Source: a bacterium
GTDB lineage: Bacteria > UBA8248
DNA length: 64,000 bases
Assembly (NCBI GenBank): GCA_963692865.2
Contig: OY843592.1
Coordinates: 1,408,001 to 1,472,000, forward strand
Reading direction: 5' to 3'
How positions within the stretch are numbered: position 1 is the stretch's first letter; each line of letters opens with the position of its first letter. Under the pieces are notes generated by a model that did no database searches, was not told the DNA's origin, and was given only the letters and a program-made list of their open reading frames with translations. The position numbers were made by a program, and so were the translations under genes. Below are positions 43,282 to 61,087 of this stretch, piece after piece.

Positions 43282-44025
43282 GTAGGGGCCGCATACATGC
43301 GGCCCTGCCTTTTCGCCTTCACAATGCGGGTCGCATGTATGCGGCCCCTACACGTCCCCTCGTGGGGCGACCGTAGGGACAGGCCTCCGCGCCTGTTCTC
43401 ACGAGGGACGGCCACGGAGGGCCGGACAACCCCTCCCCGGGGTTGTCCGGCTGCAAAACCATCGCGCCCGCCCACGCTACGTGAACCTGCATGCCGCCGC
43501 TCGCGAAACAGGGTTTTTCAACAACCCCGCCACGGTCGAATTTTCCCTCTTCGGGGGTGTTGAAAAAGTCCCTAAATGGAAAGTGTTCACCGTCATTCCG
43601 GCGAAAGCCGGAATCCATTTTACGCCTTTCGTCTTTCGTCGGGGTTCCCGCGCTTCGGCGGGGAATGAAAAGCCGCCGCGTATTCACCCGCACCCGCAAA
43701 TGAATTCCGGCATGCGCCGGAATGACGGCTGCGGGATTCCGATTTGCCGAAGGGTGTGTAGGTCGGACATATATGTCTGACCTACAAACCCCTCTGCTTT
43801 TCTCCTGCACGGCTTTTTCAGCAGCCCCGTATGCGGCGCCTGCGCCCCCTCGCATCCGTGGAGCCGGATCACGCCGCCGTCATTCCGGGGCAGGTGAAAC
43901 GCGGAAAACAACGGGGAAGGGCGGCCACGGGGATCGCTCCGGCTACGAACGCCTCGCGTATCGGAATGATCCCGTAGTGGGCCGCTCTTTAGCGGCCCAA
44001 GTTCGCGAACCGCCCCTACGGACAT
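43282..44025. repeat. Mosaic repeat cluster 1: GTAG REP doublet (43282-43351), CGTC REP doublet (43591-43727), IS-like ends (43514-43528, 43554-43567, 43814-43828)
   Basis: GTAGGGGCCGCATACATGCGGCCC; CGTCATTCCGGC...GCCGGAATGACG; GGGGTGTTGAAAAA and TTTTTCAGCAGCCCC. Confidence 0.9.
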
Positions 44026-44062
44026 ATCGCGTATCGAAACGCACCGCAGGCGCCCACCGGCC

Positions 44063-45361
44063 TCACAGCCACGCGAACTTCGCGGCGAACAGGAGCGCGA
44101 CCCCGACAAGCGTCGGCGAGCATTCGCGCGCGCGTCCCGCCATCAGCTTGATCAGGGCGTAGGTGATGACGCCGACGCCGATGCCGTCGGCGATGGAGAA
44201 CGTCAGCGGTATGGCGATGACGGTCAGTACCGCCGCGGCCGATTCGGTGGCGTCGCTCCAGTCCAGGTCCATGAGCGGGCGCGCCATCAGGCACGCCACG
44301 TAGAGGATGGCAGCCGCCGTCGCGTAGGGCGGAACCGAGCCCGCGAGCGGGGCGAAGAACAGGCAGGCGAGGAACAGGACGGCCACGACCACCGCGCACA
44401 GGCCCGTGCGCCCGCCCGCGCCGGTTCCGGCGGCGCTCTCGATGTAGCTCGTCACGGGCGAGGTGCCGAGCAGGGCGCCCCCGACCGTTCCCGCCGAGTC
44501 GGCGATCAGCGCGCGCTGCATGCGCGGGAGCCGCCCTTCCTCATCCAGGAGGTTCGCCTGGTGCGCCACGCCGATGAGCGTGCCCGTCGTGTCGAACAGG
44601 TCGACGAGCAGGAACGTGAGAACCACGGCGAGCATGCTCGCCTGCAGCGCGCCGGCGATGTCCAGGGCGAAGAGCGTCGGCGTCGGGTCGGGCGGCAGCG
44701 AGGCGAAGCCCTTCCATTCGGAGACGCCGAACGCCAGGCCCGCGGCGGCGACCGCCAGCATCCCGATGAGCGCGGCGCCCGGCGCCCTGCGCGCGTCGAG
44801 CGCCACGATCAGGCAGAAGCCGGCCAGGCACAGCAGCGGTTCGGGCGTCGTCAGGTGGCCCACGGTGACCAGCGTCGCCTTGCTGCCCTGAATGACGCCG
44901 GCGTTCTTGAGCGCGATGACGCCCAGGAACAATCCGATTCCGGCCGCAATGCCCAGCTTGAGTCCCTGCGGTATCGCCTCGACGATCCAGCGCCGCACCG
45001 GCAGTATGCTGATCGCCAGGAACAACAGGCCGGAAACGAAGACCGCGCCCAGCGCGACCTCCCACTTGTGGCCGAGTCCGAGCACGACGCTGAAGGCGAA
45101 GAAGGCGTTCAGGCCCATGCCCGGCGCCAGCGCGATCGGGTAGTTGGCGTAGAGGCCCATAATCAGCGTGGCGCCCGCCGCCGAGAGGCAGGTGGCGACG
45201 AACACCGCGTCGAACGGCATGCCGGTGCTGGAGAGGATCTGCGGGTTCACGAAGGCGATGTAGGCCATCGTCAGGAACGTCGTCACGCCCGCCGTAATTT
45301 CCGTCCGTACGTCGGCGCCGCGCTGCGCCAGTCCGAAGAAGCGTTCAAGGGTATCGGTCAT
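44063..45361 (-). CDS. NCS2 (AzgA-like) purine permease
   Basis: TTFLTMAYI; APGMGLNAFF; FDTTGTL; YIESAAG; GGRTGL. Confidence 0.94.
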   Translation of the reverse strand: MTDTLERFFGLAQRGADVRTEITAGVTTFLTMAYIAFVNPQILSSTGMPFDAVFVATCLSAAGATLIMGLYANYPIALAPGMGLNAFFAFSVVLGLGHKWEVALGAVFVSGLLFLAISILPVRRWIVEAIPQGLKLGIAAGIGLFLGVIALKNAGVIQGSKATLVTVGHLTTPEPLLCLAGFCLIVALDARRAPGAALIGMLAVAAAGLAFGVSEWKGFASLPPDPTPTLFALDIAGALQASMLAVVLTFLLVDLFDTTGTLIGVAHQANLLDEEGRLPRMQRALIADSAGTVGGALLGTSPVTSYIESAAGTGAGGRTGLCAVVVAVLFLACLFFAPLAGSVPPYATAAAILYVACLMARPLMDLDWSDATESAAAVLTVIAIPLTFSIADGIGVGVITYALIKLMAGRARECSPTLVGVALLFAAKFAWL

Positions 45362-45500
45362 GGGTTCCTCTCACGGGTTTTCGGGGCGGGCGGTTCGGGG
45401 CGGCCTTCGGTTCGAGATTGCGCCGCAGTCTAATACAGCGCCGAGGATTTTTCGAGCGGGGGCCACATGGCCCACCCTAACGAGTCGATGCGGTTTTGTT

Positions 45501-46390
45501 CGTCATTCCGGCGCATGCCGGAATCCAGAACCGATGAGAAGGATAAATATCGGCATTCCATTCCCTCATTCATTCGCCGGGAATGACGGACAAAGAACAA
45601 AAGACAAAGTCCCTGGATTCCGGCATGCGCCGGAATGACGGTGAGCAATCTCGATTCAAGGGGATTGTTGAAAAACCCCACGCCGGGGGACATCGTTTTT
45701 ACCGGGAAGGCCGCTTCCGCGCGAACCCCCAAACCCCCTCGTCGGAACCACCCCCCCTATCCCCCCTTGTCAGGGGTCAAACGCGAGTGATGAACGAGCG
45801 TTTGCATAAGCCATTGACGAGAAACACATCGGCTCGCAAAACCTCCCTCTTCGGTCGGTTTTGACCCCTGACAAGGGGCTGTTGAAAAAGTTCACAAAAG
45901 GAGCACGCCGAATTTCACTCCCCCCTTGAGGGGTTGTTGAAAAACCTGTCCCTCTCGGATCAGCCACGTTTTATCCGTAGGGGCAATCCCTCCTCGGGAC
46001 TGCCCCACCATTCGCGAACGGCCCTTCCCGGAGAAGAAACGGGCGCTTCACGAAGCGCCCCTCCGGTCGCCATTCGAGATGGTATTGTATGTCGGACATA
46101 TATGTCCGACATATCATGCGACCCGCATATCGAACGGGGAGGGCCGCATGATATGCGGCCCCTACACCGCCACTCGAACGACGCCTATGGGGACAAGCCT
46201 CTGCGCCCGCCCGTATTTAGCGCCCGTCAGACAACCCTTTTCATCAGGACAGGCGCGGGGGCCTGTCCCTACGCAAGGATAGCGTCTTCGCAGGGCAGCC
46301 TCTTCTTCAGTCGAGGCTGACTCCGCCTTCTCCCGGTTTTCGTTTCCGGCAATCGGACGGACACACGGGTCCGCCCCGACGGTCCACCCC
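45501..46390. repeat. Mosaic repeat cluster 2
   Basis: CGTC doublet 45501-45640; CCCCTTGTCAGGGG/CCCCTGACAAGGGG pair; three GTTGAAAAA ends; GTAG palindromes. Confidence 0.9.
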
Positions 46391-46450
46391 CCCCGGTTGG
46401 TTTCCCCTTCCATGAAATGGTAGTTTGGTGCCGAAACGGGAGGAGACGCC

Positions 46451-47449
46451 TTGCGACGATTGTGGTTCATCATCCTGGCGGCGGCCCTGGGGCTGCCGGT
46501 CCATACGGCGGGCGACGCTCGGGCCGGGCCTGCGCGGGAGGACGCCCGGAATCAGGCGGCGCGGGCGCCTTTCGTCGTGGTGCTCGACCCCGGCCACGGG
46601 GGGCGCGACGCCGGCAGCCGCGGCGCGCGGCTTCTGGAGAAGGATTTCGCGCTCCGCGCGGCGGAGATGCTGGCCGCGCTCCTCGCAAGACGCCCCGAGG
46701 TGAAGGCGGTCCTCACGCGCGAGGCCGACACGGAGATGACCGCCGTCCAGCGCGCCTCGGTGGCGAACTACAACGCCGCCTCGTTGTTCCTCACCCTGCA
46801 CGCGGACGCCTCCTGGCGGCCCGGCGCGCGGGGGCCGGCCATCATGGTGGCGGCGCCCAGGCGTCCGCCGCGCGTGGCCGGGGAGGCGGCCCGGGCCGTG
46901 GCGTTCCGCTGGCAGCGGAGCCAGAACGTCCATCTGGCCTCGAACCGCCGCTTCGCCCTGGACCTGCAGAGGCGCTTCGCCGCCATCCGCGCGGGCGCGA
47001 GGCCGCCGCTCCGCATTCTCGCCGTGCGCGATCTGGAGGGCGCGCGCATGCCCGCGGCTTACGTGAGCCTGGGCGTCATCAGCACGCCCGAGGACGAGGC
47101 GCGCCTGAGCGAGACGGGAGAAGAGGACCCATACCTCACGGCGCTCGCCAGGGCGGTGCTCAAGTTCGCGGGCCTCACGGAAGACCTGCCGCCCAAACCG
47201 CCCGCGCCCGAAGAGGCCGCGCCGGTAGAGACTCCCGAATCGCAGGCCACACCGACTGAATCTTCACGGGTTCCGGAGACCCCTCCGCAGCCTGAATCTG
47301 GTGAACCCGAAGCCGCGCCGTCTGAATCTTCAGGGGCGCCCGATCCGCCTCGGCGGCCTGAATCTACTGAACCGCAACCCGCGCAGGCGGGATCGCCTCA
47401 GCCGGGGTCCGGGACGCAGAACGCCGCGCCTTCCGGGGAGGGCCGCTAG
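46451..47449 (+). CDS. N-acetylmuramoyl-L-alanine amidase family protein (Amidase_3), catalytic Glu apparently substituted
   Basis: Signal peptide; VVLDPGHGG; EK; TLHADA; MPAAYVSLG; Pro/Glu/Ser-rich tail. Confidence 0.85.
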   Translation: MRRLWFIILAAALGLPVHTAGDARAGPAREDARNQAARAPFVVVLDPGHGGRDAGSRGARLLEKDFALRAAEMLAALLARRPEVKAVLTREADTEMTAVQRASVANYNAASLFLTLHADASWRPGARGPAIMVAAPRRPPRVAGEAARAVAFRWQRSQNVHLASNRRFALDLQRRFAAIRAGARPPLRILAVRDLEGARMPAAYVSLGVISTPEDEARLSETGEEDPYLTALARAVLKFAGLTEDLPPKPPAPEEAAPVETPESQATPTESSRVPETPPQPESGEPEAAPSESSGAPDPPRRPESTEPQPAQAGSPQPGSGTQNAAPSGEGR

Positions 47450-47450
47450 G

Positions 47451-48242
47451 GTGGCGAAGAAACTCGCGCTGGCCGTCTTGATCATCCTCGTGAGCGGAGC
47501 GCTCGTCTGGAATTTCCAGGAAACCGTCTTGGACTTCATCGAGCGGGGCCGGGACGCCGAGGTAGACGACGCCGGGCGGCCCGGCGCCGCGCGCGCGCCG
47601 GGCGTGAAGAAGACGCTTTATTTCGCAAGCGCCGAGCAAGACGCGCTCGTTCCCTATCCCGTCGAGGTCGAGATCGGGAAGAAGGAGGTCGATACCCTGC
47701 GCAACGTGCTGGCGGCGCTCATCGCCGGACCCGAGAGGGAGGGGTACGCGCCGGTCATTCCCAAAGGAGTGAAGCTGCGCGCCGCGTTTCCGGGGCCGGA
47801 CGGGGTCGCCTACGTCGATTTCGACGAGGCCTTGAGAGACGCGCACCCGGGCGGCGTGTGGGCGGAACTGATGACCGCCTACGGCGTCGCCAACACCGTG
47901 ATCGGGAATTTTCCCGATCTGTACGATCGCGTGGCGCTGCTCATCGGGGGGCAGGAGGCGCTGAGCATCGCGGGCTCCCTGGCCATCACGGGCCCGCTCA
48001 AGGCGCGCGAGGAGTTGCTAATGAATCGCGCTCCCGCACCCGCCGCGGGCGGCGCATCCCAAGACGCGCGGGAGGCGGTTACGCAAAACGCCGCCACGGC
48101 CGCCCAGGGGCCTCCCGCGAGCGCCGTGGGCGAACCCAGGGAGACCCTCCCGCCGGTGGGCGGCTCTCCCCTCTCGCCGGTGGGCGTGCCCGAGAAAAAG
48201 CCGGACGTGGACGCGGTGGGCGCGCCGGGTGGGGATCGTTGA
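47451..48242 (+). CDS. GerMN domain protein
   Basis: N-terminal TM; TLYF; ALIAGP; AYVDF; HPGG; VANT. Confidence 0.88.
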   Translation: MAKKLALAVLIILVSGALVWNFQETVLDFIERGRDAEVDDAGRPGAARAPGVKKTLYFASAEQDALVPYPVEVEIGKKEVDTLRNVLAALIAGPEREGYAPVIPKGVKLRAAFPGPDGVAYVDFDEALRDAHPGGVWAELMTAYGVANTVIGNFPDLYDRVALLIGGQEALSIAGSLAITGPLKAREELLMNRAPAPAAGGASQDAREAVTQNAATAAQGPPASAVGEPRETLPPVGGSPLSPVGVPEKKPDVDAVGAPGGDR

Positions 48243-48292
48243 AAAAGCCTTAATGAACAAGGATTTAACGCGACCGATGAAAGTGTAAGAAT

Positions 48293-48463
48293 CACTCCCC
48301 CCTTGAGGGTCTGGCTTCCCGAGGGGAAAGCCAGACGAAGAGGCCGAGCCTTGGCGAAGGCCGATTCGGCGGGGGACATGGTGATAAAATCAAAAGCTCC
48401 CCCCACCAGTTCGCTTTCGGGCTTACGCCCTTAGCTCACTGACTCCCCCTCAAGGGGGGAGTG
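48293..48463. repeat. About 170-bp hairpin-ended element, copy 1 (intact)
   Basis: CACTCCCCCCTTGAGGG...CCCTCAAGGGGGGAGTG terminal inverted repeats; near-identical to 48778-48938. Confidence 0.92.
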
Positions 48464-48537
48464 TTTCCATACTGCGTGTTAATCGGTATTGCTCGCGAGG
48501 AGGGAGTGAACTTCAAGACCATCGAGGTCGAACACGG

Positions 48538-48777
48538 GCGGTGTAGGGGCCGCATATCATGCGGCCCGCCGCCGGAGGGGCGAAAAGGCCGGGCCGCATG
48601 ATATGTCGGACATATATGTCTGACCTACACACCCTCTTGAAAGACGACCGTGGGGGCGCTTCGTGAAGCGCCCGTTTCTTCTCCGGGGCGGGGCGTTGAT
48701 GAACGCCCCACGTTCGCGAACGGCCCCTACGGGTAAAACGTGGTTGATCCGAGAGGGACGGATTTTTCAACAGCCCC
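48538..48777 (-). repeat. About 240-bp composite repeat, inverted homologue of 45930-46170
   Basis: Shared GTTGAAAAA..TCCCTCTCGGATCA..GGAGAAGAAACGGGCGCTTCACGAAGCGCCC..GACATATATGTC..GCGGCCCCTACAC. Confidence 0.88.
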
Positions 48778-48938
48778 TTGAGGGTCGGGCTTCCCGAGGG
48801 GAAAGCCAGACGAAGAGGCCGAGCCTTGGCGAAGGCCGATTCGGCGGGGGACATGGTGATAAAATCAAAAGCTCCCCCCACCAGTTCGCTTTCGGGCTTA
48901 CGCCCTTAGTTCACTGACTCCCCCTCAAGGGGGGAGTG
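48778..48938. repeat. About 170-bp hairpin-ended element, copy 2, interrupted at its left hairpin loop
   Basis: Direct repeat of 48303-48463 with very few substitutions. Confidence 0.92.
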
Positions 48939-49039
48939 AATTGTCTCTCTCCTTGGCTTGTAGCGATCCTATGGAGGGTGTGGTTTTGTTTGTCATTCCG
49001 GCATTGCAGGCGTTTCCCAACAGCCCCCTGTAATTCGCG

Positions 49040-50413
49040 TCAGGCGCACGCCTCGCGTATGGATTCCTCCAGAACCCCCACCATCCGGCTGATCTCCTCG
49101 TTCGTCACGCAGTAAGGCGGCATCAGGACGATCACGTCGCCCAGGGGCCGCACGGCGAGGCCGCGCCTTCTCGCCGCCAGGATGACCGCGCGCCCCTTGC
49201 GCTCGGCGGGCGTGTAGGGTTCCTTCGTCGCCTTGTTCTTCAAAAGCTCCACGCCGACCATCCAGCCCAGGCCGCGCGCCTCGCCCACGTGGGCCGAGGC
49301 TTTCAGCCGTTCGAGTTCGCTCCAAAGGCGGACAATCTTCGCCCGGTTCGTTTCGATGGTGCGTTCTCTCTCGAAAATTTCGAGGTTCGCAAGCGCCGCG
49401 GCGCAGGCGAGCGGGTTCCCCGTGTAGGAGTGCCCGTGAAAGAACGCCCGGCCCGTCTCGGGCGGTCCGCGGAATGCGTCGAAAATCTCCTCGCTCGCGA
49501 GCGTCGCCGCCAGCGGCAGGTAGCCGCCCGTGATGCCCTTGGCGAGGCACAGGATGTCGGGGGAGACGCCCTCGTGCTCGCAGGCGAACATGGGGCCGGT
49601 GCGCCCGAAGCCCGTGGCGACCTCGTCCGCTATCAGGAGCACGTCGTGCGCCGCGCACGCCTCGCGCACCTTATGGAGAAAGCCCGTCGGCTGGACGATC
49701 ATCCCCGCCGCTCCCTGCACCATCGGCTCCAGGACCACCGCCGCTAGATGCGGCGCGTTCTCCGCGATGTGATGCGCGATCTCATCGCCCGAACACACCG
49801 GACACGGCGGGCGCTCCGCCCCCCTCGGGCACCAGAAGCAATAGGGCGCCTCAGCTCTCATGGTCTGGAAGAGGAGCGGCCCGAAGATGTGGTGGAACAG
49901 GTCGATTCCGCCCACAGACACCGCGCCGACCGTGTCGCCGTGGTAGGCCAGGTTCAGGGTGAGGAACCTGTCTTTCTCAGGCTTGGGGTCTTTTCTCTGC
50001 TTTTGGTATTGAAACGCCATCTTGAGGGCGATTTCCACCGCCGTCGCGCCCGAATCAGAATAAAAAACGCGGGTGAGGCCTTCTGGCGCGATTCGCGTGA
50101 GCTTTTCGGCGAGTTCGATGGCGGCGGGATTCGCCATGCCGAGCTGGGTGGTGTGGGCGATCCGCCCAAGCTGGGCGCGGACGGCCTCGTCTATCTCTTC
50201 CTTGCGGTGTCCGTGTATGTTCACCCACAGGGAGGACACGCCGTCCAGGTAGCGCCCGCCCTCCACGTCGATCAGGTACGCCCCCTCGCCGCGCTCGACG
50301 ATGAGCGGCGGGTCCTCATTCTCCCACTCGTCCATGGGGGTGAAGGGATGCCAGAGGTGCTTCCTGTCCGCGTCTGTCAGTCGGCGGAGGCGCCCCGCTT
50401 CGTCGGTGCTCAT
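49040..50413 (-). CDS. bioA: Adenosylmethionine--8-amino-7-oxononanoate transaminase
   Basis: LWHPFT; SSLWVNIHGH; DSGATAVE; YHGDT; DEVATGFGRTG; AKGITGGYLP. Confidence 0.95.
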   Translation of the reverse strand: MSTDEAGRLRRLTDADRKHLWHPFTPMDEWENEDPPLIVERGEGAYLIDVEGGRYLDGVSSLWVNIHGHRKEEIDEAVRAQLGRIAHTTQLGMANPAAIELAEKLTRIAPEGLTRVFYSDSGATAVEIALKMAFQYQKQRKDPKPEKDRFLTLNLAYHGDTVGAVSVGGIDLFHHIFGPLLFQTMRAEAPYCFWCPRGAERPPCPVCSGDEIAHHIAENAPHLAAVVLEPMVQGAAGMIVQPTGFLHKVREACAAHDVLLIADEVATGFGRTGPMFACEHEGVSPDILCLAKGITGGYLPLAATLASEEIFDAFRGPPETGRAFFHGHSYTGNPLACAAALANLEIFERERTIETNRAKIVRLWSELERLKASAHVGEARGLGWMVGVELLKNKATKEPYTPAERKGRAVILAARRRGLAVRPLGDVIVLMPPYCVTNEEISRMVGVLEESIREACA

Positions 50414-51189
50414 GCGGGGCGTTCGGCGAGGATGACGGCTTCCTGCTCATCGAAGGCGAACGCACCGTCCTCCTCGCGCGGGTCGAGCCAGTAGGCGATG
50501 GCGGGCGAGGCGCTTTCGAGATATGCGCGAAGCGCCGCCTTGTCCGCGTCCGTGAGGTGGGGACGGTTCACCCACTCGGAGAGCACCATCTTCTTACGGA
50601 GCGTCTCCGAATAGAGGACGCGGAAGCCCGCCGCCTCCAGCATCTCCACCAGGTCGGGCAGGCTGTCGCATCGGTTGTGGCTCGGGTCGCGCAGGCGCTC
50701 GAAATCGTTGTAGCTGTCCTGCTCCCTGGGTTCTTCCGGCGCGATGTTGTCGATGTAGACGAGCCTGCCGCCGGGTTTCAGGACGCGGAACATCTCGCGC
50801 ATCGAGGCCTCTACGTCGGGGAAATGATGTGGCGCGATGCGCACCGATACCGAATCGAGCGCGCCCGTCTGGACGGCGATGCTCTCGGCGTCGGTTCTGA
50901 GATAGGAGACGTTCCCGACGCCCTTCTCCTCCCCTAATCTTCGCGCGGAATCGAGCATGCCGGCGGTCAGGTCGCTCGCGATGACGTGGCGGCACTTCTC
51001 CGCCATCCGGTAGGCCGTGTGGCCCGCGCCCGTGGCGACGTCGAGATGGACGCCTCCGCTCGGGTTCAGCACCTCGGCGGAGCGCGCAAGCGAACTGCTC
51101 CGCGCATGCGGCGCGCTGGTGACATAGTAGTCCGAATCCTGGTTGTAAATCTTCTGTACGGCCTCTCGCTGCTCCCTGGACGTGTCCAT
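50410..51189 (-). CDS. Class I SAM-dependent methyltransferase
   Basis: LDVATGAGH; RIAPHHF; RVLKPGG; LRDPSH; stop overlaps the bioA start (ATGA). Confidence 0.88.
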   Translation of the reverse strand: MDTSREQREAVQKIYNQDSDYYVTSAPHARSSSLARSAEVLNPSGGVHLDVATGAGHTAYRMAEKCRHVIASDLTAGMLDSARRLGEEKGVGNVSYLRTDAESIAVQTGALDSVSVRIAPHHFPDVEASMREMFRVLKPGGRLVYIDNIAPEEPREQDSYNDFERLRDPSHNRCDSLPDLVEMLEAAGFRVLYSETLRKKMVLSEWVNRPHLTDADKAALRAYLESASPAIAYWLDPREEDGAFAFDEQEAVILAERPA

Positions 51190-51313
51190 GCGGCTCCTCG
51201 ATGAGAACGGGAATATCGGCTTGCGGGGGGAGTATTTCCAGAAAACCGGTTTTGAGGCAAGCACCTGGCGGGTCAATCGCGACTGATGAAGGAGTGATTG
51301 ACGCGACTGATGA

Positions 51314-51540
51314 GGGGTTGTTGAAAAAGTCCCCGGAAGCAGGGAACGGGTTTCCCGTAGGGGCGGACCTGCGTGTCCGCCCGGTTGTTGATGCGGACCT
51401 TGTTGAGGTTTTTCTACCCCTTTGGTGTTCCAGTTCCCGATATCCGTTCGATATGCGAACTTCGCGTTTGGGGCGGACACGCAGGTCCGCCCCTACAAAA
51501 GACGCAAACGCTAATTCATCGAGCTTTTTCAACAAACCCC
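51314..51540. mobile_element. Non-autonomous MITE-like element carrying a GTAG REP doublet
   Basis: GGGGTTGTTGAAAAA...TTTTTCAACAAACCCC enclosing GTAGGGGCGGACCTGCGTGTCCGCCC and its inverted copy. Confidence 0.75.
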
Positions 51541-51690
51541 TCAAGGGGGGAAGTGAACTTCAAAAGCGTGCGCGAAAAAATCGCTTCTCGGGGATTTTCC
51601 AATGCTCCCGGCAGAGGAGGGCTGTGTCCAGGCAGACTCTACATGTGAGCCGGTCCACGTCGGGAAAGAGAGATCGGATTTGAGTTTGGC

Positions 51691-52320
51691 CTAAAGCGGC
51701 CTCAATACCGCGCGCGCGGGCGCGCCGTCTCGGCCCGGGAACAGGGCGGGCAGGGCGATGAGCTCGTAATCGCCCTCGGGCGCATCGGCGAGGTTCAGCC
51801 CTTCGAGCAGCACGACGCCCAGCGGCATCAGCAGCATGTGGACGGGCGCGTTGGGGTCGGGCGCGTCCACGCCGAGATAGTCCACGCCCAGGAGCTCCAT
51901 CCCGTGGTCGTAGAGAAGCTGCCCGGCTTCGGGCGTCATGTGGCAGTAGTCGGGGCTGTAGGGCTTCGACCACCATCCCTCGTCCGAGTTTCGCGTCTTG
52001 ATGAGAAAGCGCGTGGCGCCTTCGAGGTTCTTGGTGGCGAGCTCCTCCGCCGTGATGCACTCGTGGTTTTCGACCGCGATCACCCGGGCGGGACCCATGA
52101 GGGTTTCGAGGTTCAGCGTCTCGATGCCGCCCGCATCGTGCAGGTAGTGCATGGGCGCGTCCACGTGCGTGCCGGCGTGCACGCCGAAGAGGACTTCGGT
52201 GAGGCAGACGTCGTCGCCTGCGTCGAAGGATTTGTGGAAGCGTATCGAGAGCCCCGGGTTTCCGGGGTAGATGGGCATTTTCCCTTCTTCTACGGGAACG
52301 GATATGTCGATGATGGCCAT
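51691..52320 (-). CDS. Cyclase family protein (kynurenine formamidase-like)
   Basis: YPGNP; HAGTHVDAPMH; GVDYL; DGAPARA. Confidence 0.92.
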   Translation of the reverse strand: MAIIDISVPVEEGKMPIYPGNPGLSIRFHKSFDAGDDVCLTEVLFGVHAGTHVDAPMHYLHDAGGIETLNLETLMGPARVIAVENHECITAEELATKNLEGATRFLIKTRNSDEGWWSKPYSPDYCHMTPEAGQLLYDHGMELLGVDYLGVDAPDPNAPVHMLLMPLGVVLLEGLNLADAPEGDYELIALPALFPGRDGAPARAVLRPL

Positions 52321-52525
52321 GCGCGCTCCTCCGGCGGGATGGGGTGGGATTGGATGAGACTAGGATATCAAAAAACGGCGTGGGGTGTCCAAACGGGGGT
52401 TTTCGGGGTTGATCGCGACCGCTGCGTGAGGCCGCATTGATCCATGGGATGATGCTTCTCTCCCGCTCGCCCTCCGCCCTCGAATCATCCCCCTTCCTTC
52501 CTCACCGGTCGGGATCGACCACCGT

Positions 52526-52730
52526 CGTCATTCCGGCTTTCGCCGGAATGACGAACAAAACCGCACCGCCTCTTTCCTCACCCTGAGTAGCCGCCGAAGG
52601 CGGCGTATCGAAGGGCGAGGGGAGTCGAACGACCCACGCCGGTGCGAGAGGGCATCCTTCGATACGCGGCTTCACCGCTACTCAGGATGAAGCGGAGAGG
52701 ACTTTTTCAACAGCCCTGACAAGGGGGGTT
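52526..52730. repeat. Repeat cluster: collapsed CGTC palindrome, CTCACCCTGAG...CTCAGGATGA doublet, IS-like right end
   Basis: CGTCATTCCGGCTTTCGCCGGAATGACG; GCGTATCGAAGG/CCTTCGATACGC; TTTTTCAACAGCCC. Confidence 0.85.
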
Positions 52731-52831
52731 GGCGGTGGGGGAGAAGCAGACCGCATGTGGTAAGGCTTTTTAAGTGGAGAAGATGGAACTTGAGAAATTC
52801 ATGACGAGGCGAAAACGGGAAGGACGAAGCG

Positions 52832-53044
52832 ATGGGTTCCCATCCGGTGAAAAACAGGCGCAAGGACGAACCGCCGAACGAAGCGGAAGAAACCGCCGAG
52901 GATGCGATTGATTTCGAGATAGCGGCGAAACGATGGCGCGATCTCAAGAAAGGCCGCGACTCGCTCGTTACGGATGAAGGACGGGTGGTCGATTTTGATG
53001 ACTTCGTGATTCTGCGCATGGACCCGGCCGGGGAGAGCACCTGA
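52832..53044 (+). CDS. Hypothetical 70-aa acidic protein
   Basis: AAGGA upstream; only plausible ORF between two repeat clusters. Confidence 0.45.
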   Translation: MGSHPVKNRRKDEPPNEAEETAEDAIDFEIAAKRWRDLKKGRDSLVTDEGRVVDFDDFVILRMDPAGEST

Positions 53045-53077
53045 CAACCGCTCCCCCTTGTAGAGCGCTAAACTGTT

Positions 53078-53265
53078 ACTCCCCCTCAAGGGGTTGTTGA
53101 AAAACCCCCTCCTCGCTCGGAATTCACCACCGCCGTCATTCCGGCGCATGCCGGAATCCAGAGCAGACGGGGATACCGAATCGCAGGACGACCAGGAAAA
53201 ACGATAAAGCGAAAAGACAAATTCAAAAACAAAGTCCCTGGATTCCGGCATGCGCCGGAATGACG
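53078..53265. repeat. Hairpin half-site + IS-like left end + CGTC REP doublet
   Basis: ACTCCCCCTCAA|GGGGTTGTTGAAAAA, then CGTC doublet 53134-53265. Confidence 0.88.
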
Positions 53266-53303
53266 ATCAAAACCGCATTCAACCGTAGCGGGGTGGTTGC
53301 CCT

Positions 53304-53678
53304 TCACGCTTTCACCGATTGAGCAGCGCTTTCGGTCGGATGGCCGTCGCGCTTCCACCAGTCGAGTCCGCCCATGAGTTCCTTCACCCCGAAGCCGAGC
53401 CGCGTCATGTTGAGCGCGCCCTTGGTCGAGGCGTTGCAGCCGATGCCGTCGCAATAGGTGACGATGAGGGCATCCCCGTCGAGGTGCCCGGTGGTATCGG
53501 GGTTCATCTGCCGGTGCGGGATGTTGATCGCGCCGGGGATGTGCTCTTCCTCGTATGCCTCGGGCGAACGCGCATCGATGACGACGACGTTCTCGCCTTG
53601 TTCCATCGCGACTTTCAGGTCCCATGAATCGGTTTCATAGGCCAGCTTGTTCGCGTAGTGGTCGAGCTGTTCGTTCAT
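53304..53678 (-). CDS. Rhodanese-like domain protein
   Basis: VIDARS; HIPGAINIP; YCDGIGCNAS; GGLDWW. Confidence 0.92.
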   Translation of the reverse strand: MNEQLDHYANKLAYETDSWDLKVAMEQGENVVVIDARSPEAYEEEHIPGAINIPHRQMNPDTTGHLDGDALIVTYCDGIGCNASTKGALNMTRLGFGVKELMGGLDWWKRDGHPTESAAQSVKA

Positions 53679-53725
53679 TGGATATCCTTGATTTAAGCGC
53701 TCATCATCTTTGAGTGGCAGTCCCC

Positions 53726-54832
53726 CTACTCGTGCACGACGACGCTGCGGGCCACCTCGCCGTTTAAGAGCGCATCGTATGCCTCGTTGATCTGCTCGAT
53801 GGGCCACTCCCTGGTGAGCAGGTCGTCGAGATTGAGTTTCCCGGCCATGTAGAGGTCGATGAGCCGGGGCACGAACAGCCTGGGGTTGGACGAGCCGTAG
53901 AGGGAGCCGATGAGGCGCTTCTCTTCCGTCACCAGGGAGGTGGGCTGTACCGAGACTTGTGATTTCACGTCCGCGATGCCGACGATGACGGCGGTGCCGC
54001 CCGTGCGCAGGCTCTTGAACGCCGTGGACATCACCTCGGGCACGCCGATGAACTCGAAGGCGTAGTGCACGCCCTTGCCGTCGGTGATCGAGCGGATGGC
54101 CTCCACCGCGTCCTCATCCGATGAGTTCACCGTGTGCGTCGCGCCGAATTTCTTCGCCATCTCGAGCTTGTTCTGCATCAGGTCGACCGCGATGATGGGT
54201 TCCGCCCCCACCATGGCCGCGCCCTGAATCCCGTTCAGCCCCACGCCGCCCGCGCCGAATATCGCCACGCTCTCGCCCGGACGCACCTGCGCGCCGTTCA
54301 CCACCGCGCCCACGCCCGTGATGACGGCGCAGCTCACCACCGCCGCTTTTTCGAGCGACATGTCCTCTCGAATCTTGAGCACCGATTTCTCCGACACCAC
54401 CGAGTGGGAGCTGAACGTGGAGACGCCCAGGAAGTGGTGCACCTTCTCGCCGTTGATGGAAAAGCGCGTCGTGCCGTCCGAGAGCGTGCCGTCGGCCCGC
54501 ATGCGGATGCCCTCGCCGCAGATGGCGGGCCGGTTCGAGAGGCAGAGCTCGCATGCGCCGCAGCTGTAGCGCCAGACGGATACCACGTGATCGCCCGGCT
54601 TCACCGACGTCACGCCGGGCCCCACCTCCTCCACGACGCCCGCGCCCTCGTGACCCATGATGATGGGCGTGGGCACCGGGAACAGGCCCGCGATGGCGTG
54701 GTGGTCGCTGTGGCAGACGCCGCCCGCGCGGTAGTGCACGAGCACCTCGCCCTCCTTGGGCGGTTCCACCTCGATGGGTTCGATGGTCATCGGTTTGCCG
54801 ACTTCGTGGAAGATGGCTGCTTTCATGGGCAT
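53726..54832 (-). CDS. Zn-dependent alcohol dehydrogenase (class III-like MDR)
   Basis: GVCHSD; GHEGAG; CGACELC...C structural Zn site; FGAGGVG; GAGGAG RBS. Confidence 0.93.
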   Translation of the reverse strand: MPMKAAIFHEVGKPMTIEPIEVEPPKEGEVLVHYRAGGVCHSDHHAIAGLFPVPTPIIMGHEGAGVVEEVGPGVTSVKPGDHVVSVWRYSCGACELCLSNRPAICGEGIRMRADGTLSDGTTRFSINGEKVHHFLGVSTFSSHSVVSEKSVLKIREDMSLEKAAVVSCAVITGVGAVVNGAQVRPGESVAIFGAGGVGLNGIQGAAMVGAEPIIAVDLMQNKLEMAKKFGATHTVNSSDEDAVEAIRSITDGKGVHYAFEFIGVPEVMSTAFKSLRTGGTAVIVGIADVKSQVSVQPTSLVTEEKRLIGSLYGSSNPRLFVPRLIDLYMAGKLNLDDLLTREWPIEQINEAYDALLNGEVARSVVVHE

Positions 54833-54984
54833 GCTCCTCGGTCGATGGGTATGCGCGGGGGCAAAGAACCCCGGCGATATCTTGTGGTTTTTCGTATTCT
54901 TACCCGAAAACGGGCCGGATTGCACACGGCGCTCCCCATCGGGCGTTGCAAGTCGGGGCGCATCCGTATATGCTCTTGGGAGAT

Positions 54985-55078
54985 AGTTCCTGCTAGGGGT
55001 GTATGCGCTGAGAGCCCGGAGTCGCGGGCAACCCTTGGAACCTGCACTGGGTAATTCCAGCGAAGGGAAGCGGGCCGA
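54985..55078 (+). promoter_or_regulatory. TPP riboswitch aptamer
   Basis: CTAGGGGTG..GCTGAGA..ACCCTTGGAACCTG..CTGGGTAATTCCAGCGAAGGGAA upstream of thiSGE. Confidence 0.95.
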
Positions 55079-55095
55079 AGAATCCGGGTGTTTTT

Positions 55096-55130
55096 GGCCG
55101 CTCCCGAATCGCGGGGCGGCTTTTTTGTTT
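55096..55130 (+). terminator. Riboswitch-controlled intrinsic terminator
   Basis: GCCGCTCC/GGGGCGGC stem plus TTTTTTGTTT. Confidence 0.75.
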
Positions 55131-55154
55131 TGATGTTTCTGGGGAGATGATTTC

Positions 55155-55355
55155 TTGCGTGTCCGGGTGAACGGAGAGGACAGGGAACTGGCAGAGGGCG
55201 TGAGCGTCGCGGCGCTTCTGGACTCCATGTCGCTCGAGGTGAACGGCATCGCCGTGGCGCTCAACATGGAGATCGTCCGCCGGGGCGAATACGGGGATAC
55301 GCAGTTATCCGATGGGGATGAGGTCGAGATCGTCCGCGCCGTGGGCGGGGGCTGA
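55155..55355 (+). CDS. thiS: Sulfur carrier protein ThiS
   Basis: VNGE; AVALN; C-terminal AVGGG. Confidence 0.95.
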   Translation: MRVRVNGEDRELAEGVSVAALLDSMSLEVNGIAVALNMEIVRRGEYGDTQLSDGDEVEIVRAVGGG

Positions 55356-55406
55356 TTATGAATGATAACGGGCGCGGCGTGAGAGCCGGCGCCGGGAGGG
55401 AGTGTG

Positions 55407-56180
55407 ATGAGCACGTATGAGATCGGGGGCAGGACGTTCACTTCCCGCCTTTTGGTGGGTTCGGGCAAATATCCGAGTTTCGCCGTGATGCGCGACGCGC
55501 TCGAAGCGAGCGGGACGGAGATCGTCACCGTCGCCGTGCGCCGCGTGGATCTAGAAGACGATTCCTCGGAGGGCTTCTGGGCGCATTTCGATAAAGATAA
55601 ATACACGATGCTGCCCAATACGGCGGGCTGCTACGACGTGAAGAGCGCGGTGACGACGGCGCGGCTCGCGCGCGAGGCCACCGGGTCCGACTTCGTGAAG
55701 GTCGAGGTCATCGGCGATGAGGACACGCTCTTCCCGGACAACGAGGGCCTGCTGGAGGCGTGCCGGATTCTGCTGGACGACGGCTTCATCGTCCTGCCCT
55801 ACTGCATCGACGATCCGGTGATCTGCAAGAAACTCGAACAACTCGGCTGCCACGCCGTCATGCCGCTGGCGGCGCCCATCGGCTCGGGCCTCGGCATCCG
55901 GAACCCCTACAACCTCAGGATCATCCTGGAGCAGGTATCGGTTCCCGTCATCGTGGACGCGGGCGTGGGCACGGCTTCGGACGCCGCGGTGGCGATGGAG
56001 TTGGGCGCGGCCGCCGTCCTGATGCAGACGGCCATCGCGGGCGCGGACGACCCGGTGAAGATGGCGCGCGCCATGAACCTCGCCGTCGAGTCGGGCAGGC
56101 TCGCGTACGAGGCCGGGCGCATCCCCATGAAGCTCTACGCCACGGCGTCGAGTCCGCTGGCGGGCGTCATCGGCTCTTAG
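55407..56180 (+). CDS. thiG: Thiazole synthase
   Basis: [10 protein letters not shown]; LPNTAGC; KVEV; APIGSGLG; DAGVGTASD. Confidence 0.97.
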
Positions 56181-56199
56181 GGCTGATACCGCGAAGATT

Positions 56200-56826
56200 T
56201 TGGAATCATCCGCGCTGGACCCGCTCTACCTCATCACGGACAGGAACGCCCCCCCGTCGGGCGATCTCCTCGACGCGCTGGAAGCCGCCCTCGCAGGCGG
56301 CGTGCGCTTCGTCCAGTTCCGCGAGAAGGATATGCCATTTGAGGAGCGCCTGCGCCTGGGGCGGGAGGTCGCCTCCCTTGCCTCTGAACACGGCGCGCGC
56401 CTGCTCGTGAACGGCGACCCCGAACTCGCGGACGCCCTGGGCGCGGACGGCGTTCATCTCGGCAAGGGGACGGTGAGCGTCTCGGAGGTGCGCGCGGGAG
56501 GCTATTCCGGCCTCATCGGCTATTCCGCCCATTCGGGAGAAGAAGCCGCTGCTGCGTTCGCAGAGGGAGCGGATTTCGTTACGCTCAGCCCCGTGTTCCC
56601 CACCAACAGCAAATTCTCATCCGGCGCCGTCCTGGGACTCGATAAGTTCGAGAAAGAGCGCGAAGTTGCGGGCGGCCCCGTCTACGCGCTCGGCGGCGTG
56701 GGGGCCGAGAACGCCTCTGCGTGTATCGAAAGAGGCGCGAGCGGCGTCGCGCTCATCGGCGCGGTACTGGCGGCCGACGACCCCGCCCGCGCGGCGCGGG
56801 AGGTGCGCGCGGCGCTGCGCGTTTGA
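56200..56826 (+). CDS. thiE: Thiamine phosphate synthase (ThiE/TenI family)
   Basis: LYLITD; QFREK; DGVHLG; SPVFPT; ALGG. Confidence 0.85.
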   Translation: MESSALDPLYLITDRNAPPSGDLLDALEAALAGGVRFVQFREKDMPFEERLRLGREVASLASEHGARLLVNGDPELADALGADGVHLGKGTVSVSEVRAGGYSGLIGYSAHSGEEAAAAFAEGADFVTLSPVFPTNSKFSSGAVLGLDKFEKEREVAGGPVYALGGVGAENASACIERGASGVALIGAVLAADDPARAAREVRAALRV

Positions 56827-56835
56827 GCGCGCCCG

Positions 56836-57392
56836 CATGTGGTTGTTGAAAAAAACCTTCTCGCTCGGAATTGGCCACTGCCGTCATTCCGGCGCCATTG
56901 CCGTTCCTGTCGCAGGGGCCGCATACGGGGTTGTTGAAAAATCTCCCCCTGGCGGGATAAACGCAACCTCCTCGAAGGAGAAGCCCCATAAAGGCACCCC
57001 CCCCTACCCCCCTTGCAGGGGCAAGAAAGAGCAAAGCCCCTCCACCCGGCGGGGGACATCGCCTTTTTATGTCCCCCTTGAGGGGGGTTGTTGAAAAAGC
57101 CGGAGAGGGAAAGTTTCTTTGTGCGTAGGGGTCGCATACATGCGACCCTCCCCGTTGGGGGCACGCGGGCCGCATAATATGCGTGGGGCGCTCCCAAGGA
57201 GGGAGCGCCACCTACAAAAACCGCCCCCTCCCGGTCGCGTCATATCCTCGTTAATCATCACTTTTTCTACTCCCCCTCAAGGGGGGAGTGGTTTCGGTGT
57301 TCTCCTCGGTGGGAGAGGTTTTTCAATAACCCCATGTATGCGACCCGTGTTTTGAAGGCGAAAAGGCAGGGCCGCATGTATGCGGCCCCTAC
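56836..57392. repeat. Mosaic repeat cluster between thiE and acs
   Basis: Three GTTGTTGAAAA left ends, one TTTTCAATAACCCC right end, CGTC half, GTAG palindromes, CCCCTTGAGGGG and CCCCTCAAGGGG hairpins. Confidence 0.9.
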
Positions 57393-57647
57393 ACGCGGGC
57401 GGTGGCCCCTCACGGATCGGCTCTCACCAAGGAAAGGTCGCGACCTCGGACGGGAGCAAGGGCCCGTCCGCTGCCACCCCCTCCCCGGTTGTTCGCATTC
57501 GCCGAATCACGAAATCGGGGACTTTTCCGGCGGCCCCGCGCGTTTTCCCGCCCCGCGCTACTTGAGAAATCCGCGCGAATATCCAACAATAGCGGAAAAT
57601 CGCATAGCTATGATTTTTTTCACCTGACCGATCCGGGAGGTATTCTC

Positions 57648-59603
<1,956 letters not shown>

Positions 59604-59633
59604 GAGCGACCGAGCAGAGTCAAGGTTTCATTT

Positions 59634-59661
59634 GTAGGGGACGCACATCATGCGTCCCTTA
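59634..59661. repeat. Single GTAG-type REP palindrome
   Basis: GTAGGGGACGCACATCATGCGTCCCTTAC. Confidence 0.75.
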
Positions 59662-59700
59662 CTTGTATCTTCTCACGTTCAGGGAGGAATTTTCGGCAGG

Positions 59701-60855
59701 ATGAGCCTTGAAGAAATCTTAAGAAAAGCGGTCGAGCACATTGACTCTGGCTTGTTGAGAAAAGAGACACAAGTCAGGGATACAGTTATCAATCCCATTC
59801 TCAAAGCGTTGGATTGGGATGTTGGTAATCCTGAAAGGGTCAGAACGGAATATGAAGTTCTAAAAGGTAAAGAAGGCTCGGTAGACTACGCACTACTCAG
59901 AGAAAAGGCGCCTGTGATTTTCATAGAAGCTAAAAAGCTTGGCGGTATAAAAAAAGCCAAGAAGCCTAGGGACGAAGATAGCAGGGAACAACTATTTAAC
60001 TATTATTATGCCGATAGGAGGCCGGAGTTTCTAATTCTGACGGACGGCAAACGCTGGTTTTTTTATCTCGGGAAATTGGAGGAAGAAGAAAAAGTCTTAG
60101 ATAATCTGTTGTTCCACGAAATGGAATTAACGAGTAGGGAAGAGGTTTCCAAGTATGTCTCGTTTTTCAGGAAATACCTTGAGAGGAAGCAAATCGTTTC
60201 TTACCGGAGTGCCTTGAAGGCCGCAGAGAATGTCTACAAAAAGAATCAGGATAGAAAGATAACACGCGACGCGATTCCGAGTGTCTGGCTAAGGATGCTG
60301 GAGACCCCGAACCAGAAACTACGCGATCTGCTGGCGAAAGAGGTAAGAAACGAGCTTAAATCCAAGCTGAAACCAGATGATTTGCGAGAAGAAGTGGAAG
60401 CGTTTTTGAAAGAGTTTGCTTCTGAGGCTGTGCCACCAACATCTCGCTCCCGTTCATCAAAGCCAGTGCCTGCCTCGGCGGAGCCTAAAGCTGGCAAGGG
60501 GTCGAAATTCGTCGGCTTCGTTCTTGATGGGAAGGACTTCGCCACCAAAAACTCCATAGAAACTTTGGCCAAAATACTGAAAGAGTTTTCTGGCCGTGAA
60601 TCTGGATTTATGGAACGCTTTGCGGAGAAAACGAAGGGGAAAGAGAGGCCGTTGGTGTCGAAAGACCGCGATAAACTCTATGCTCGCCCTAATGAAGCTC
60701 ATCCCCAAGCCGAGGATTTGAAGAACGGGTGGTGGTTACAGAAAGGAACAAACGCTAAAATAGAGCAAATCAAGAAACACATCGAAATCGCCTGCGAAGT
60801 TGCAGGCGTGAAATTCGGCTCTCAGTTGGAGCTGATTGAGCCTGATGCCCAGTAA
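59701..60855 (+). CDS. HsdR_N-type PD-(D/E)xK nuclease with a SeqA-like C-terminal domain
   Basis: INPILKALDWD; VDYAL; IEAKK; LTDGKRW; visibly AT-richer codon usage than its flanks. Confidence 0.75.
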   Translation: MSLEEILRKAVEHIDSGLLRKETQVRDTVINPILKALDWDVGNPERVRTEYEVLKGKEGSVDYALLREKAPVIFIEAKKLGGIKKAKKPRDEDSREQLFNYYYADRRPEFLILTDGKRWFFYLGKLEEEEKVLDNLLFHEMELTSREEVSKYVSFFRKYLERKQIVSYRSALKAAENVYKKNQDRKITRDAIPSVWLRMLETPNQKLRDLLAKEVRNELKSKLKPDDLREEVEAFLKEFASEAVPPTSRSRSSKPVPASAEPKAGKGSKFVGFVLDGKDFATKNSIETLAKILKEFSGRESGFMERFAEKTKGKERPLVSKDRDKLYARPNEAHPQAEDLKNGWWLQKGTNAKIEQIKKHIEIACEVAGVKFGSQLELIEPDAQ

Positions 60856-60892
60856 TCTTGAGAATTATCGGCGAGATTAGGAAAGTTTTTTT

Positions 60893-61087
60893 ACTCCCCC
60901 CGAGGGGCGGTTGAAAAAACCCTCCTCGATCTGAATTGTCCACCGCTGTCATTCCGGCGAATGCCGGAATCCAGAACCGATGAGAGAACCGGAGCCCATG
61001 GAATCCGGCCCCTTACGCCGGAGTGCCTCATTCCAGCCTTTCTTCAATACCAGTCCGCTCTGGATTCCGGCATTCGCCGGAATGACG
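60893..61087. repeat. Hairpin half-site + IS-like left end + CGTC REP doublet
   Basis: ACTCCCCCCGA|GGGGCGGTTGAAAAA, then GTCATTCCGGC...GCCGGAATGACG. Confidence 0.85.

Follow-up and report, generated by a model that had tools for sequence, protein, structure and literature searches.

What is the short, G-tipped sequence that interrupts so many hairpins in the intergenic DNA of this bacterium? The question is raised by a 64,000-nucleotide stretch of a genome of the UBA8248 lineage (assembly GCA_963692865.2, contig OY843592.1, positions 1,408,001 to 1,472,000; G000:C1:1408001-1472000), hereafter the window, within which positions without a contig label are counted. The genome, G000, comprises 4.15 Mb in 8 contigs with 61% G+C and is 97% complete. 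A preliminary description, made from the letters of the window, had proposed that the sequence forms the ends of a nonautonomous mobile element that enters hairpin loops and both invades and carries repetitive extragenic palindromes (REPs). Our analysis of the window, the genome and the genus indicates with high confidence that the sequence marks the ends of an IS1182-family insertion sequence (IS) and of several hundred gene-less miniature inverted-repeat transposable elements (MITEs) of about 110–600 bp, which insert preferentially at the centres of palindromes.

The motif is the outer part of a terminal inverted repeat

Sixteen matches to the 15-mer GGGGYTGTTGAAAAA (at most one mismatch, both strands) are found in the window, all within 43514-60918, and 0.00 are expected from 100 dinucleotide-preserving shuffles. 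Allowing up to three mismatches raises the count to 25, where 2.1 would be expected. The motif thus occurs more than a dozen times, as had been stated, and every junction quoted at the outset is present as described. Across the genome the one-mismatch pattern matches 806 times, 402 on the plus and 404 on the minus strand. The consensus of 805 oriented copies consists of the 15-mer and four further conserved bases, (G/C)CCC, with little conservation past that. The motif therefore makes up the outermost 15 positions of a terminal inverted repeat of 19 bp, GGGGYTGTTGAAAAA(G/C)CCC.

The ends are arranged in pairs. Consecutive ends that face inward (plus, then minus) are spaced 100–400 bp apart in 185 of 243 cases, compared with 14 of 242 for consecutive ends that face outward, an excess characteristic of short elements with terminal inverted repeats at their borders. 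The inward-facing pairs less than 1 kb apart number 213 genome-wide and together make up 1.44% of the genome. Their interiors vary: grouping them at 80% identity and 80% coverage yields 148 clusters.

An IS1182-family insertion sequence carries the same ends

A search for longer pairs with matching flanks revealed two 1514-bp copies of one element outside the window (G000:C1:1499149-1500662 and 1724374-1725887). They are intact, lie in opposite orientation and are identical at 1514 of 1514 positions. Both have the ends GGGGCTGTTGAAAAACCCC with 19-bp repeats, and they are flanked by the duplications TTGAG and CTCAA. Each contains a single open reading frame for a protein of 480 amino acids (G000:C1:1499197-1500636, minus strand, in the first copy), which scores 345.5 bits against the NCBIfam equivalog model NF033551 (transpos_IS1182; cut-off 270), while models of other IS families score under their cut-offs. 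Its Pfam matches are DUF772, DDE_Tnp_1_6 and DDE_Tnp_1. Members of the IS1182 family are about 1.3–2 kb long, and an element of 1514 bp with one open reading frame between short inverted repeats falls within this range. On sequence grounds we assign the 1514-bp element to the IS1182 family, with a predicted DDE transposase. The likeness of the ends to those of IS1182-type DDE elements, noted in the preliminary description, was correct, and a transposase gene between the same ends, which it had suggested looking for, is present in two copies.

Besides these two copies, BLASTN of the IS against the genome returned two fragments of 381-383 bp with 84% identity and one further 69-bp match to the left end with 78% identity. 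The short elements therefore have essentially only the terminal repeat in common with the IS. They are gene-less, the consensus of the 805 ends agrees with the tips of the IS of the same genome, and they share its 5-bp duplication length, as is expected of MITEs. The 480-amino-acid transposase would bind the 19-bp ends in trans and could move any inverted pair of them, a role suggested by the co-occurrence of transposase and ends.

Miniature elements derived from the Tn3 family (TIMEs) were considered as another source of the short pairs, as the GGGG tip and the 5-bp duplication would suit them, and the GGGG ends are presumably similar to those of the Tn3 family. Tn3-family terminal repeats are about 38 bp long. 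The repeat here measures 19 bp and exactly these ends are carried by the IS1182-family IS, and no match to DDE_Tnp_Tn3 (PF01526) was found in the 97%-complete genome. The absent PF01526 match and the IS1182-family partner rule TIMEs out for practical purposes, and we assign them almost no probability.

Insertion duplicates five base pairs

An exact 5-bp direct repeat lies just outside both ends in 54 of the 213 pairs, whereas 500 random re-pairings of the flanks gave a mean of 4.7 and a maximum of 13. A 5-bp repeat with one mismatch is found in 22 further pairs (7.8 expected). The modal length is 5 bp; duplications of 4 bp occur in 8 pairs and of 6 bp in 3.

An empty allele was found in a related genome, as had been proposed as a check. 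The 147-bp element at G000:C1:3804975-3805121 has AAAAC on both sides, and the sister genome G003 is uninterrupted at this site with a single AAAAC. The geometry of the terminal repeats, the 5-bp duplication and this orthologous empty site together uphold the view that the short pairs are a family of nonautonomous elements. A second candidate, the CATGG element at G000:C1:182026-182209, was rejected as a clean empty site: it is absent in G011 and G012, where the site has diverged, and the anchors for the comparison are missing in G002 and G003.

The AAAAC element lies just upstream of a gene start, with about 13 bp between its duplication and an ATG that has a GAGGAG motif. At G000:C1:195622-196036 the duplication CATTT of another element directly adjoins the start of an opposite-strand gene. 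Both insertions could have changed the expression of the adjoining genes.

Insertions are preferentially centred on palindromes

The preliminary description held that many junctions fall at hairpin loops, and four tests, the last of them on copies in other genomes, showed palindrome centring far above chance. We reconstructed 76 empty sites from the pairs whose duplication has at most one mismatch and sought the best palindrome within 75 nt, with ties broken at random. A palindrome of at least 5 bp is present in 66 of the 76 sites. In 28 of these 66 its centre lies within 1 nt of the centre of the duplication (17 exactly), where about 3 would be expected if centres were evenly spread. Symmetric complementarity around the duplication centre (radius 3-12) averages 5.37 of 10 pairs in the 76 sites against a background of 2.52 ± 0.29 (maximum 3.28). 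The value is 4.41 against 2.49 ± 0.25 when 31 target families are weighted equally, and 3.88 against 2.47 ± 0.28 for the 24 sites of singleton families.

The flanks of the ends give the same picture. For 307 of the 806 ends the 22-nt flank recurs elsewhere in the genome without the motif, and in 147 of these cases the motif-free paralogues form palindromes whose centre deviates by no more than 1 nt from that predicted for the duplication, compared with 2-23 cases at six control offsets. The count of 147 is conservative, with short CCC-loop-GGG cores being missed. Among 39 full-length IS copies in other genomes, 27 have CCC-N3-7 before the left end and N3-7-GGG after the right end, an arrangement found at 1.1% of random positions in the same flanks.

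Several unrelated kinds of target are entered. They include the hairpins CACTCCCCCC-TTGA-GGGGGGAGTG and TACCCCCC-TTGTCA-GGGGGGTA, GTAG-type REPs, and the long-loop hairpins CAAACGC-N13-GCGTTTG and CGAACCC-N13-GGGTTCG, whose 13-base loops are duplicated in their central 5 bases. Unique palindromes are also hit, for example CCCATGGG and CGCGC-AATCT-GCGCG.

Ends, elements and empty targets in the window

The window contains the following features; elements and hairpins are given without a strand.

43514..43528, minus strand: solo right end (TTTTTCAACAACCCC), partner left end not found nearby
43553..43828: 276-bp MITE-like element with inverted ends at 43553-43567 and 43814-43828
45661..45675, plus strand: left end (GGGATTGTTGAAAAA) that opens a run of three ends in the same direction within 285 bp
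45778..45804: long-loop hairpin CAAACGC-N13-GCGTTTG, intact and empty, an example of a target family
45875..45889, plus strand: left end abutting cccc-TGACAA, the loop of the TACCCCCC-TTGTCA-GGGGGGTA hairpin family
45930..45944, plus strand: left end abutting cactcccccc-TTGA, the loop of the CACTCCCCCC-TTGA-GGGGGGAGTG family
48442..48462: hairpin actccccc-TCAA-ggggggagt, intact and empty, an example of a target family
48763..48777, minus strand: right end abutting TTGAG-ggtcgggcttccc; paralogues of the flank are filled in 22 cases and lack the motif in 54
51314..51539: MITE-like element of 226 bp with a REP doublet of the GTAGGGGCGGAC type inside
52703..52717, minus strand: right end abutting TGACAA-gggggg
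53090..53104, plus strand: left end abutting tactccccc-TCAA
56839..56853, plus strand: left end (GTGGTTGTTGAAAAA), 13 bp past the stop codon of a TMP-TENI gene
56927..56941, plus strand: left end abutting ggggccgcatac, the centre of a GTAG-type REP
57084..57333: 250-bp MITE-like element containing a REP doublet and an intact actccccc-TCAA-gggggg hairpin
60904..60918, plus strand: left end (GGGGCGGTTGAAAAA) abutting tactcccccc-GA, right end not found

The interior of the 276-bp element consists of hairpins of the gtcattccggc type and one REP. Its left flank is half of a long-loop hairpin and its right flank, gtatgcggc after the end at 43828, is a REP half; the end at 56927 is preceded by ggccgcatac. 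The flanks of the 226-bp element are halves of two different hairpin families, and the end at 51539 is followed by c-TCAA-gggg, as read from the letters. The 250-bp element is bordered by ccccc-TTGAGG on the left and by atgtatgcgaccc, a REP half, on the right. The three same-direction ends that begin at 45661 are consistent with nested or truncated elements, and the element at 60904 looks truncated. Paralogous copies of the flank of the 45930 end number 15 filled and 43 motif-free.

The inverted ends at 45930 and 48777, 2.85 kb apart, enclose genes with Amidase_3 and Germane domains. A single hairpin repeat is split between the outer flanks, one half on each side, and TTGA(G) is present at either end, an arrangement like that of a composite transposon. 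The two genes occupy the same position in G002, G011 and G012, and both types of junction are common across the genome. The composite transposon was therefore not accepted.

Observations against the reading, and competing explanations

Several observations count against transposition into palindromes as a full account, and the first group concerns the flanks. In 137 of the 213 pairs the two 5-nt flanks differ by at least two mismatches, so that simple cut-and-duplicate insertion is insufficient on its own for most copies. The three short pairs of the window (43553-43828, 51314-51539 and 57084-57333) all have unmatched flanks, the 276-bp element lacking a matching 5-bp duplication like the other two. 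Among the full-length copies in other genomes, an exact duplication is found at the naive boundaries in only 10 of 39. The proposal that the loop is a target-site duplication thus holds genome-wide, in 54 of 213 pairs, and is not demonstrated by the three short pairs of the window. Unmatched flanks may stem from recombination among copies after insertion, from nested arrays in which ends were lost, or from the occasional insertion that made no duplication.

Could the arrays be intergenic mosaics made mainly by recombination between short common hairpins, with little transposition? The unrelated flanks of the 137 pairs would fit this, as would the 148 clusters formed by 213 interiors, between which end modules re-assort, and the orthologous intergenic regions that differ wholly among sister genomes. 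Recombination leaves unexplained the 54 duplications where 4.7 are expected and the excess of inward-facing pairs, and equally the cognate IS, the exact empty site and the co-occurrence of motif and transposase. We consider it improbable as the main process. Within the preferred reading, recombination probably acts later, on copies that have already been transposed.

In four of the full-length copies (L014, L015, L017 and L021) the left side is an arm of the CACTCCCCCC type followed by TTGTC, and the right side is CTCAA or TTGAG with the matching arm. The pattern looks as though 5 nt of an earlier site had moved along with the left end.

The second group concerns the choice of target. The palindrome is off-centre in 38 of the 66 palindromic sites, and 10 of the 76 sites have no palindrome of at least 5 bp. 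The AAAAC site, known in its empty form from G003, is clean and non-palindromic, and the junctions in REPs lie 1.5-2 nt away from the exact centre. Many target sites come from few repeat families, so that the events are not all independent. The flanks, weighted by family over the 76 sites, have 48-77% C at positions -7 to -1 and 45-66% G over the seven bases after the duplication. These C-rich 5' and G-rich 3' flanks are a sequence signal in addition to the palindrome, and they mirror the CCCC/GGGG tips of the element. Palindromes are preferred, not required.

This base composition is one ground for an explanation by sequence, namely that the transposase prefers a symmetric double-stranded sequence of a C-run, 5 bp and a G-run, and that hairpins are hit for containing it. 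Such a motif resembles the abutted tips of the element itself (...CCCC / GGGG...). The singleton sites gcgcccc-CATGG-gcgg and ctgccg-CTCCA-gggcggg have CCC and GGG beside the duplication without a long stem, and four relatives of the IS from alphaproteobacteria, which have the same tips, are inserted at a single coding motif in the gene of a different transposase rather than in a hairpin. The explanation does not cover CAAACGC-N13-GCGTTTG, which is hit in mid-loop at 12 or more sites with varied loops and no adjoining C- or G-runs. Nor does it cover the REP centres (gccgcatac|), whose flanks lack the C-run and G-run. In addition, IS1272 is reported to pick inverted repeats without a common sequence, in the available text of PMC5678879 and PMC4923244. 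We regard the sequence explanation as a real possibility that falls somewhat short of even chances. The claim that structure rather than sequence is targeted keeps the palindrome centring in its favour; given the C/G-rich flanks and the clean non-palindromic insertions, it is unsettled.

The most far-reaching version of the structural view is that the transposase reads extruded hairpins and cuts symmetrically across the loop, with a 5-bp loop duplication as the result; that self-seeding insertions, each planting fresh targets through the hairpins and REP doublets it carries, built the mosaic arrays and raised the number of ends from about 1 to about 800 among species of the genus; and that in G000, where no RAYT match is found, REP doublets spread only as passengers of these elements. 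We put this forward as a speculation that is, on balance, doubtful. If true, it would be a duplication-forming counterpart of the stem-loop-replacing mode of IS1272, a pathway that is only sketched in PMC5678879 as far as the accessible portions of that paper go.

Cargo, REPs and nesting

The 213 pairs hold a large share of the repeats of the genome. They enclose 125 of 310 (40%) and 48 of 104 (46%) matches to the two commonest REP types. Of the gtcattccggc and CCCCCTTGAGGGG hairpins, 29% and 26%, respectively, also lie within them. At least two REP-like matches lie within 77 of the 213 elements. The proposed double role of REPs, as host and as cargo, is supported by the insertions at REP centres and by the REP doublets inside elements, and the interiors do differ from one another as had been described.

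Elements are also found inside elements. The commonest pattern of four ends within 1.5 kb is ++-- (20 cases), with a duplication at the inner pair in 15 of these quartets and at both the inner and the outer pair in 4. At G000:C1:712098-712589 an outer element with the duplication GATTG lies in unique DNA and carries a CGAACCC-N13-GGGTTCG hairpin, which itself holds an inner element with the duplication TCCTC.

A possible course of events can be outlined from these data. At insertion the transposase would make a 5-bp staggered cut, by which 5 bp of the target become duplicated, as is seen in the matched pairs. The cut appears to be centred preferentially on the palindrome, in keeping with the statistics above, and would leave the loop on both junctions. 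Each junction would regain a small CCCC-loop-GGGG hairpin, formed with the GGGG/CCCC tips of the element itself. With hairpins and REP doublets carried inside, each copy may supply new landing sites, and these in turn could lead to element-in-element nesting and to mosaic intergenic arrays.

G000 is rich in GTAG-type REP doublets, which represent at least four sequence types with 310, 104, 116 and 76 matches; examples in the window are at 43283-43350 and 46088-46165. A REP-associated tyrosine transposase (RAYT) was considered as the driver of these doublets and rejected, as no match to Y1_Tnp (PF01797) was found in the 97%-complete genome G000. Across the genus, 11 of the 23 genomes have PF01797 matches, mostly weak or partial. 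With 390 copies, CGTCATTCCGGC is the most frequent 12-mer of G000; it belongs to the hairpin gtcattccggc-(gaaa/gcat)-gccggaat(gac/cc), often present as inverted pairs 80-150 bp apart (in the window at 43595-43615, 45500-45530, 53135-53160 and 60948-60975). We take this hairpin to resemble the neisserial dRS3 repeat.

Distribution in the genus

The 23 genomes compared differ widely in the number of ends: six have 1-5 motifs and the others more, up to the 806 of G000; the pattern in reverse, used as a control, gives 0-1. A match to the transposase is found in none of the six genomes with at most 5 motifs and in 14 of the 17 genomes with at least 48. The three high-motif genomes without a match are assemblies of 190-470 contigs.

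Copies of the transposase range from 0 to about 33 across the 23 genomes. G000 has the most ends with only two full-length IS copies; G027, G026 and G030 have 25-33 transposase matches and 171-503 ends. The smallest genomes of the genus (2.9-3.1 Mb) make up four of the six that are nearly free of copies.

One spacer of the window illustrates the turnover. It occupies 51263-51687 (426 bp) and is filled with repeats, and its counterpart is 1 bp in G004, G006 and G008. In G005 it measures 119 bp and contains only an intact long-loop hairpin. The counterpart in G011 has an extra nested element, flanked by the duplication TTGTC and lodged in a hairpin that is uninterrupted in G012; the sequence downstream of this site also differs between the two genomes.

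These comparisons bear on whether the motif might be an artefact of assembly, or a regulatory or terminator site of the host. Its intergenic position would fit, as would the small GC hairpin that every junction forms beside an A/T run. The same ends, targets and duplications recur in several independently assembled single-contig genomes, and counts run from 1 to 806 among species of one genus. The pairing geometry, the duplications and the transposase partner are not expected of a regulatory site. We give either explanation hardly any credence.

Public sequencing runs labelled as sponge metagenomes contain parts of the window between 45300 and 49200. In run X1 the amidase and Germane genes lie on a contig of 1972 nt with 82 differing letters in about 1780 aligned bases, which points to a close relative in that run. 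The runs provide only short-read contigs, broken in every repeat, and are therefore mute on the long-range assembly. Word depth in the repeat bins is 10 to more than 100 times that of unique genes, as expected of multicopy DNA.

Comparison with known systems

A close parallel is IS1272/TnSha1 of staphylococci, also of the IS1182 family. According to the available text of PMC4923244 and PMC5678879, it inserts into hairpins of unrelated sequence, which was read as recognition of structure, and the same hairpins are hit repeatedly and independently. All or part of the stem-loop is reported to be deleted and no target duplication to be made; a variant pathway with duplication of the loop alone is also outlined in PMC5678879. 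A 2015 review, as cited in both papers, states that some IS1182 members target palindromes. The element of G000 shares with IS1272 the family assignment of its transposase and the inverted repeats or hairpins it enters, and its loop-only duplication is of the kind sketched in PMC5678879, so far as that source is accessible. It differs in duplicating 5 bp, in retaining the arms and in a cut that has its centre at the loop. The 54 exact and 22 one-mismatch pairs retain both arms, which sets it apart from IS1272 as described in the published portions available.

Other members of the family have also been described. In the accessible part of PMC3852290, MITEs derived from ISMac2 of Methanosarcina acetivorans are 160 bp (14 copies, duplication of 4) and 169 bp (7 copies). 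For ISPse1 of Paracoccus that of PMC3281130 gives a length of 1653 bp, 16/16 repeats and a 4-bp duplication. They have the family, the short terminal repeats and the short duplications in common with the element described here, which differs by a far greater copy number, with 806 ends and 213 short pairs in one genome, and by a duplication of 5 bp. The descriptions in these excerpts do not mention palindrome-centred targeting or nesting. The preprint 10.1101/2024.06.02.596822 reports, in its available text, an 'IS5/IS1182' element inserted at a deletion without duplication and has no bearing on targeting.

The closest named relatives of the transposase are encoded by IS1182-family transposase genes on Bradyrhizobium and Sinorhizobium plasmids, with about 60% identity over 88% of its length. 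Four alphaproteobacterial relatives (L085, L086, L041 and L042) retain GGGG...TGTTGAA tips (the Bradyrhizobium/Sinorhizobium tips being GGGGCTGTTGAAGAA and GGGGTCGTTGAAAAA), and two of them have exact 5-bp duplications (ACCCG and CGCGT), as in G000. The relatives differ in sitting in a Mutator-family (IS256-type) transposase gene rather than in hairpin repeats. All four seem to interrupt the same W-Q-R-C-R-V-H codons of that gene, whose identity as Pfam Transposase_mut was confirmed for L086 only and judged by eye in the other three. Either an IS homes into another IS family, or a single old event has spread.

Insertion into REPs is known for IS1397, ISKpn1, IS621, ISPpu9/10 and ISRm22, and the choice was credited to the transposase (PMC1525189). 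The five families listed in the accessible text of that paper are IS3, IS110, IS4, IS256 and IS5, IS1182 not being among them. Each of those ISs hits the REP family of its host, whereas here at least four unrelated palindrome families and unique palindromes are hit. The GTAG-type REP doublets of G000 look like REPINs as presented in the available portion of PMC3116915. They differ in that G000 has no Y1_Tnp/RAYT match and in that 40-46% of the commonest REPs lie inside IS1182-type elements. The motif studied here is itself a terminal repeat of the DDE type and not a REP.

The element had been put forward as a candidate for an undescribed system, and this did not stand: hairpin targeting by IS1272, MITEs derived from IS1182-family elements and insertion of ISs into REPs have all been published, as the available parts of PMC4923244, PMC5678879, PMC3852290 and PMC1525189 make clear. 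We found no description of this element in the literature on IS1182 MITEs, IS1182-family hairpins and sponge-symbiont MITEs, a search that did not cover ISfinder. The element is an undescribed member of a known family, and its behaviour is known or predicted for the IS1182 family.

Significance

The element stands out by its very high copy number, its clean 5-bp loop duplication and its self-nesting. For the most part, the puzzling mosaic intergenic DNA of the window and of the genome is explained by a single ordinary agent, an IS1182-family transposase with its miniature derivatives. The 19-bp repeat offers a simple marker for masking the elements and for explaining assembly breaks and the variation in intergenic length within the genus. 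The genome and its relatives also provide a large natural data set on how a DDE transposase chooses palindromic targets: the insertions number in the hundreds and enter several unrelated hairpin families, the ends vary from 1 to 806 among sister genomes, and intact transposase genes are present. Comparing this enzyme with that of IS1272 could reveal what sets the cut positions on a hairpin.

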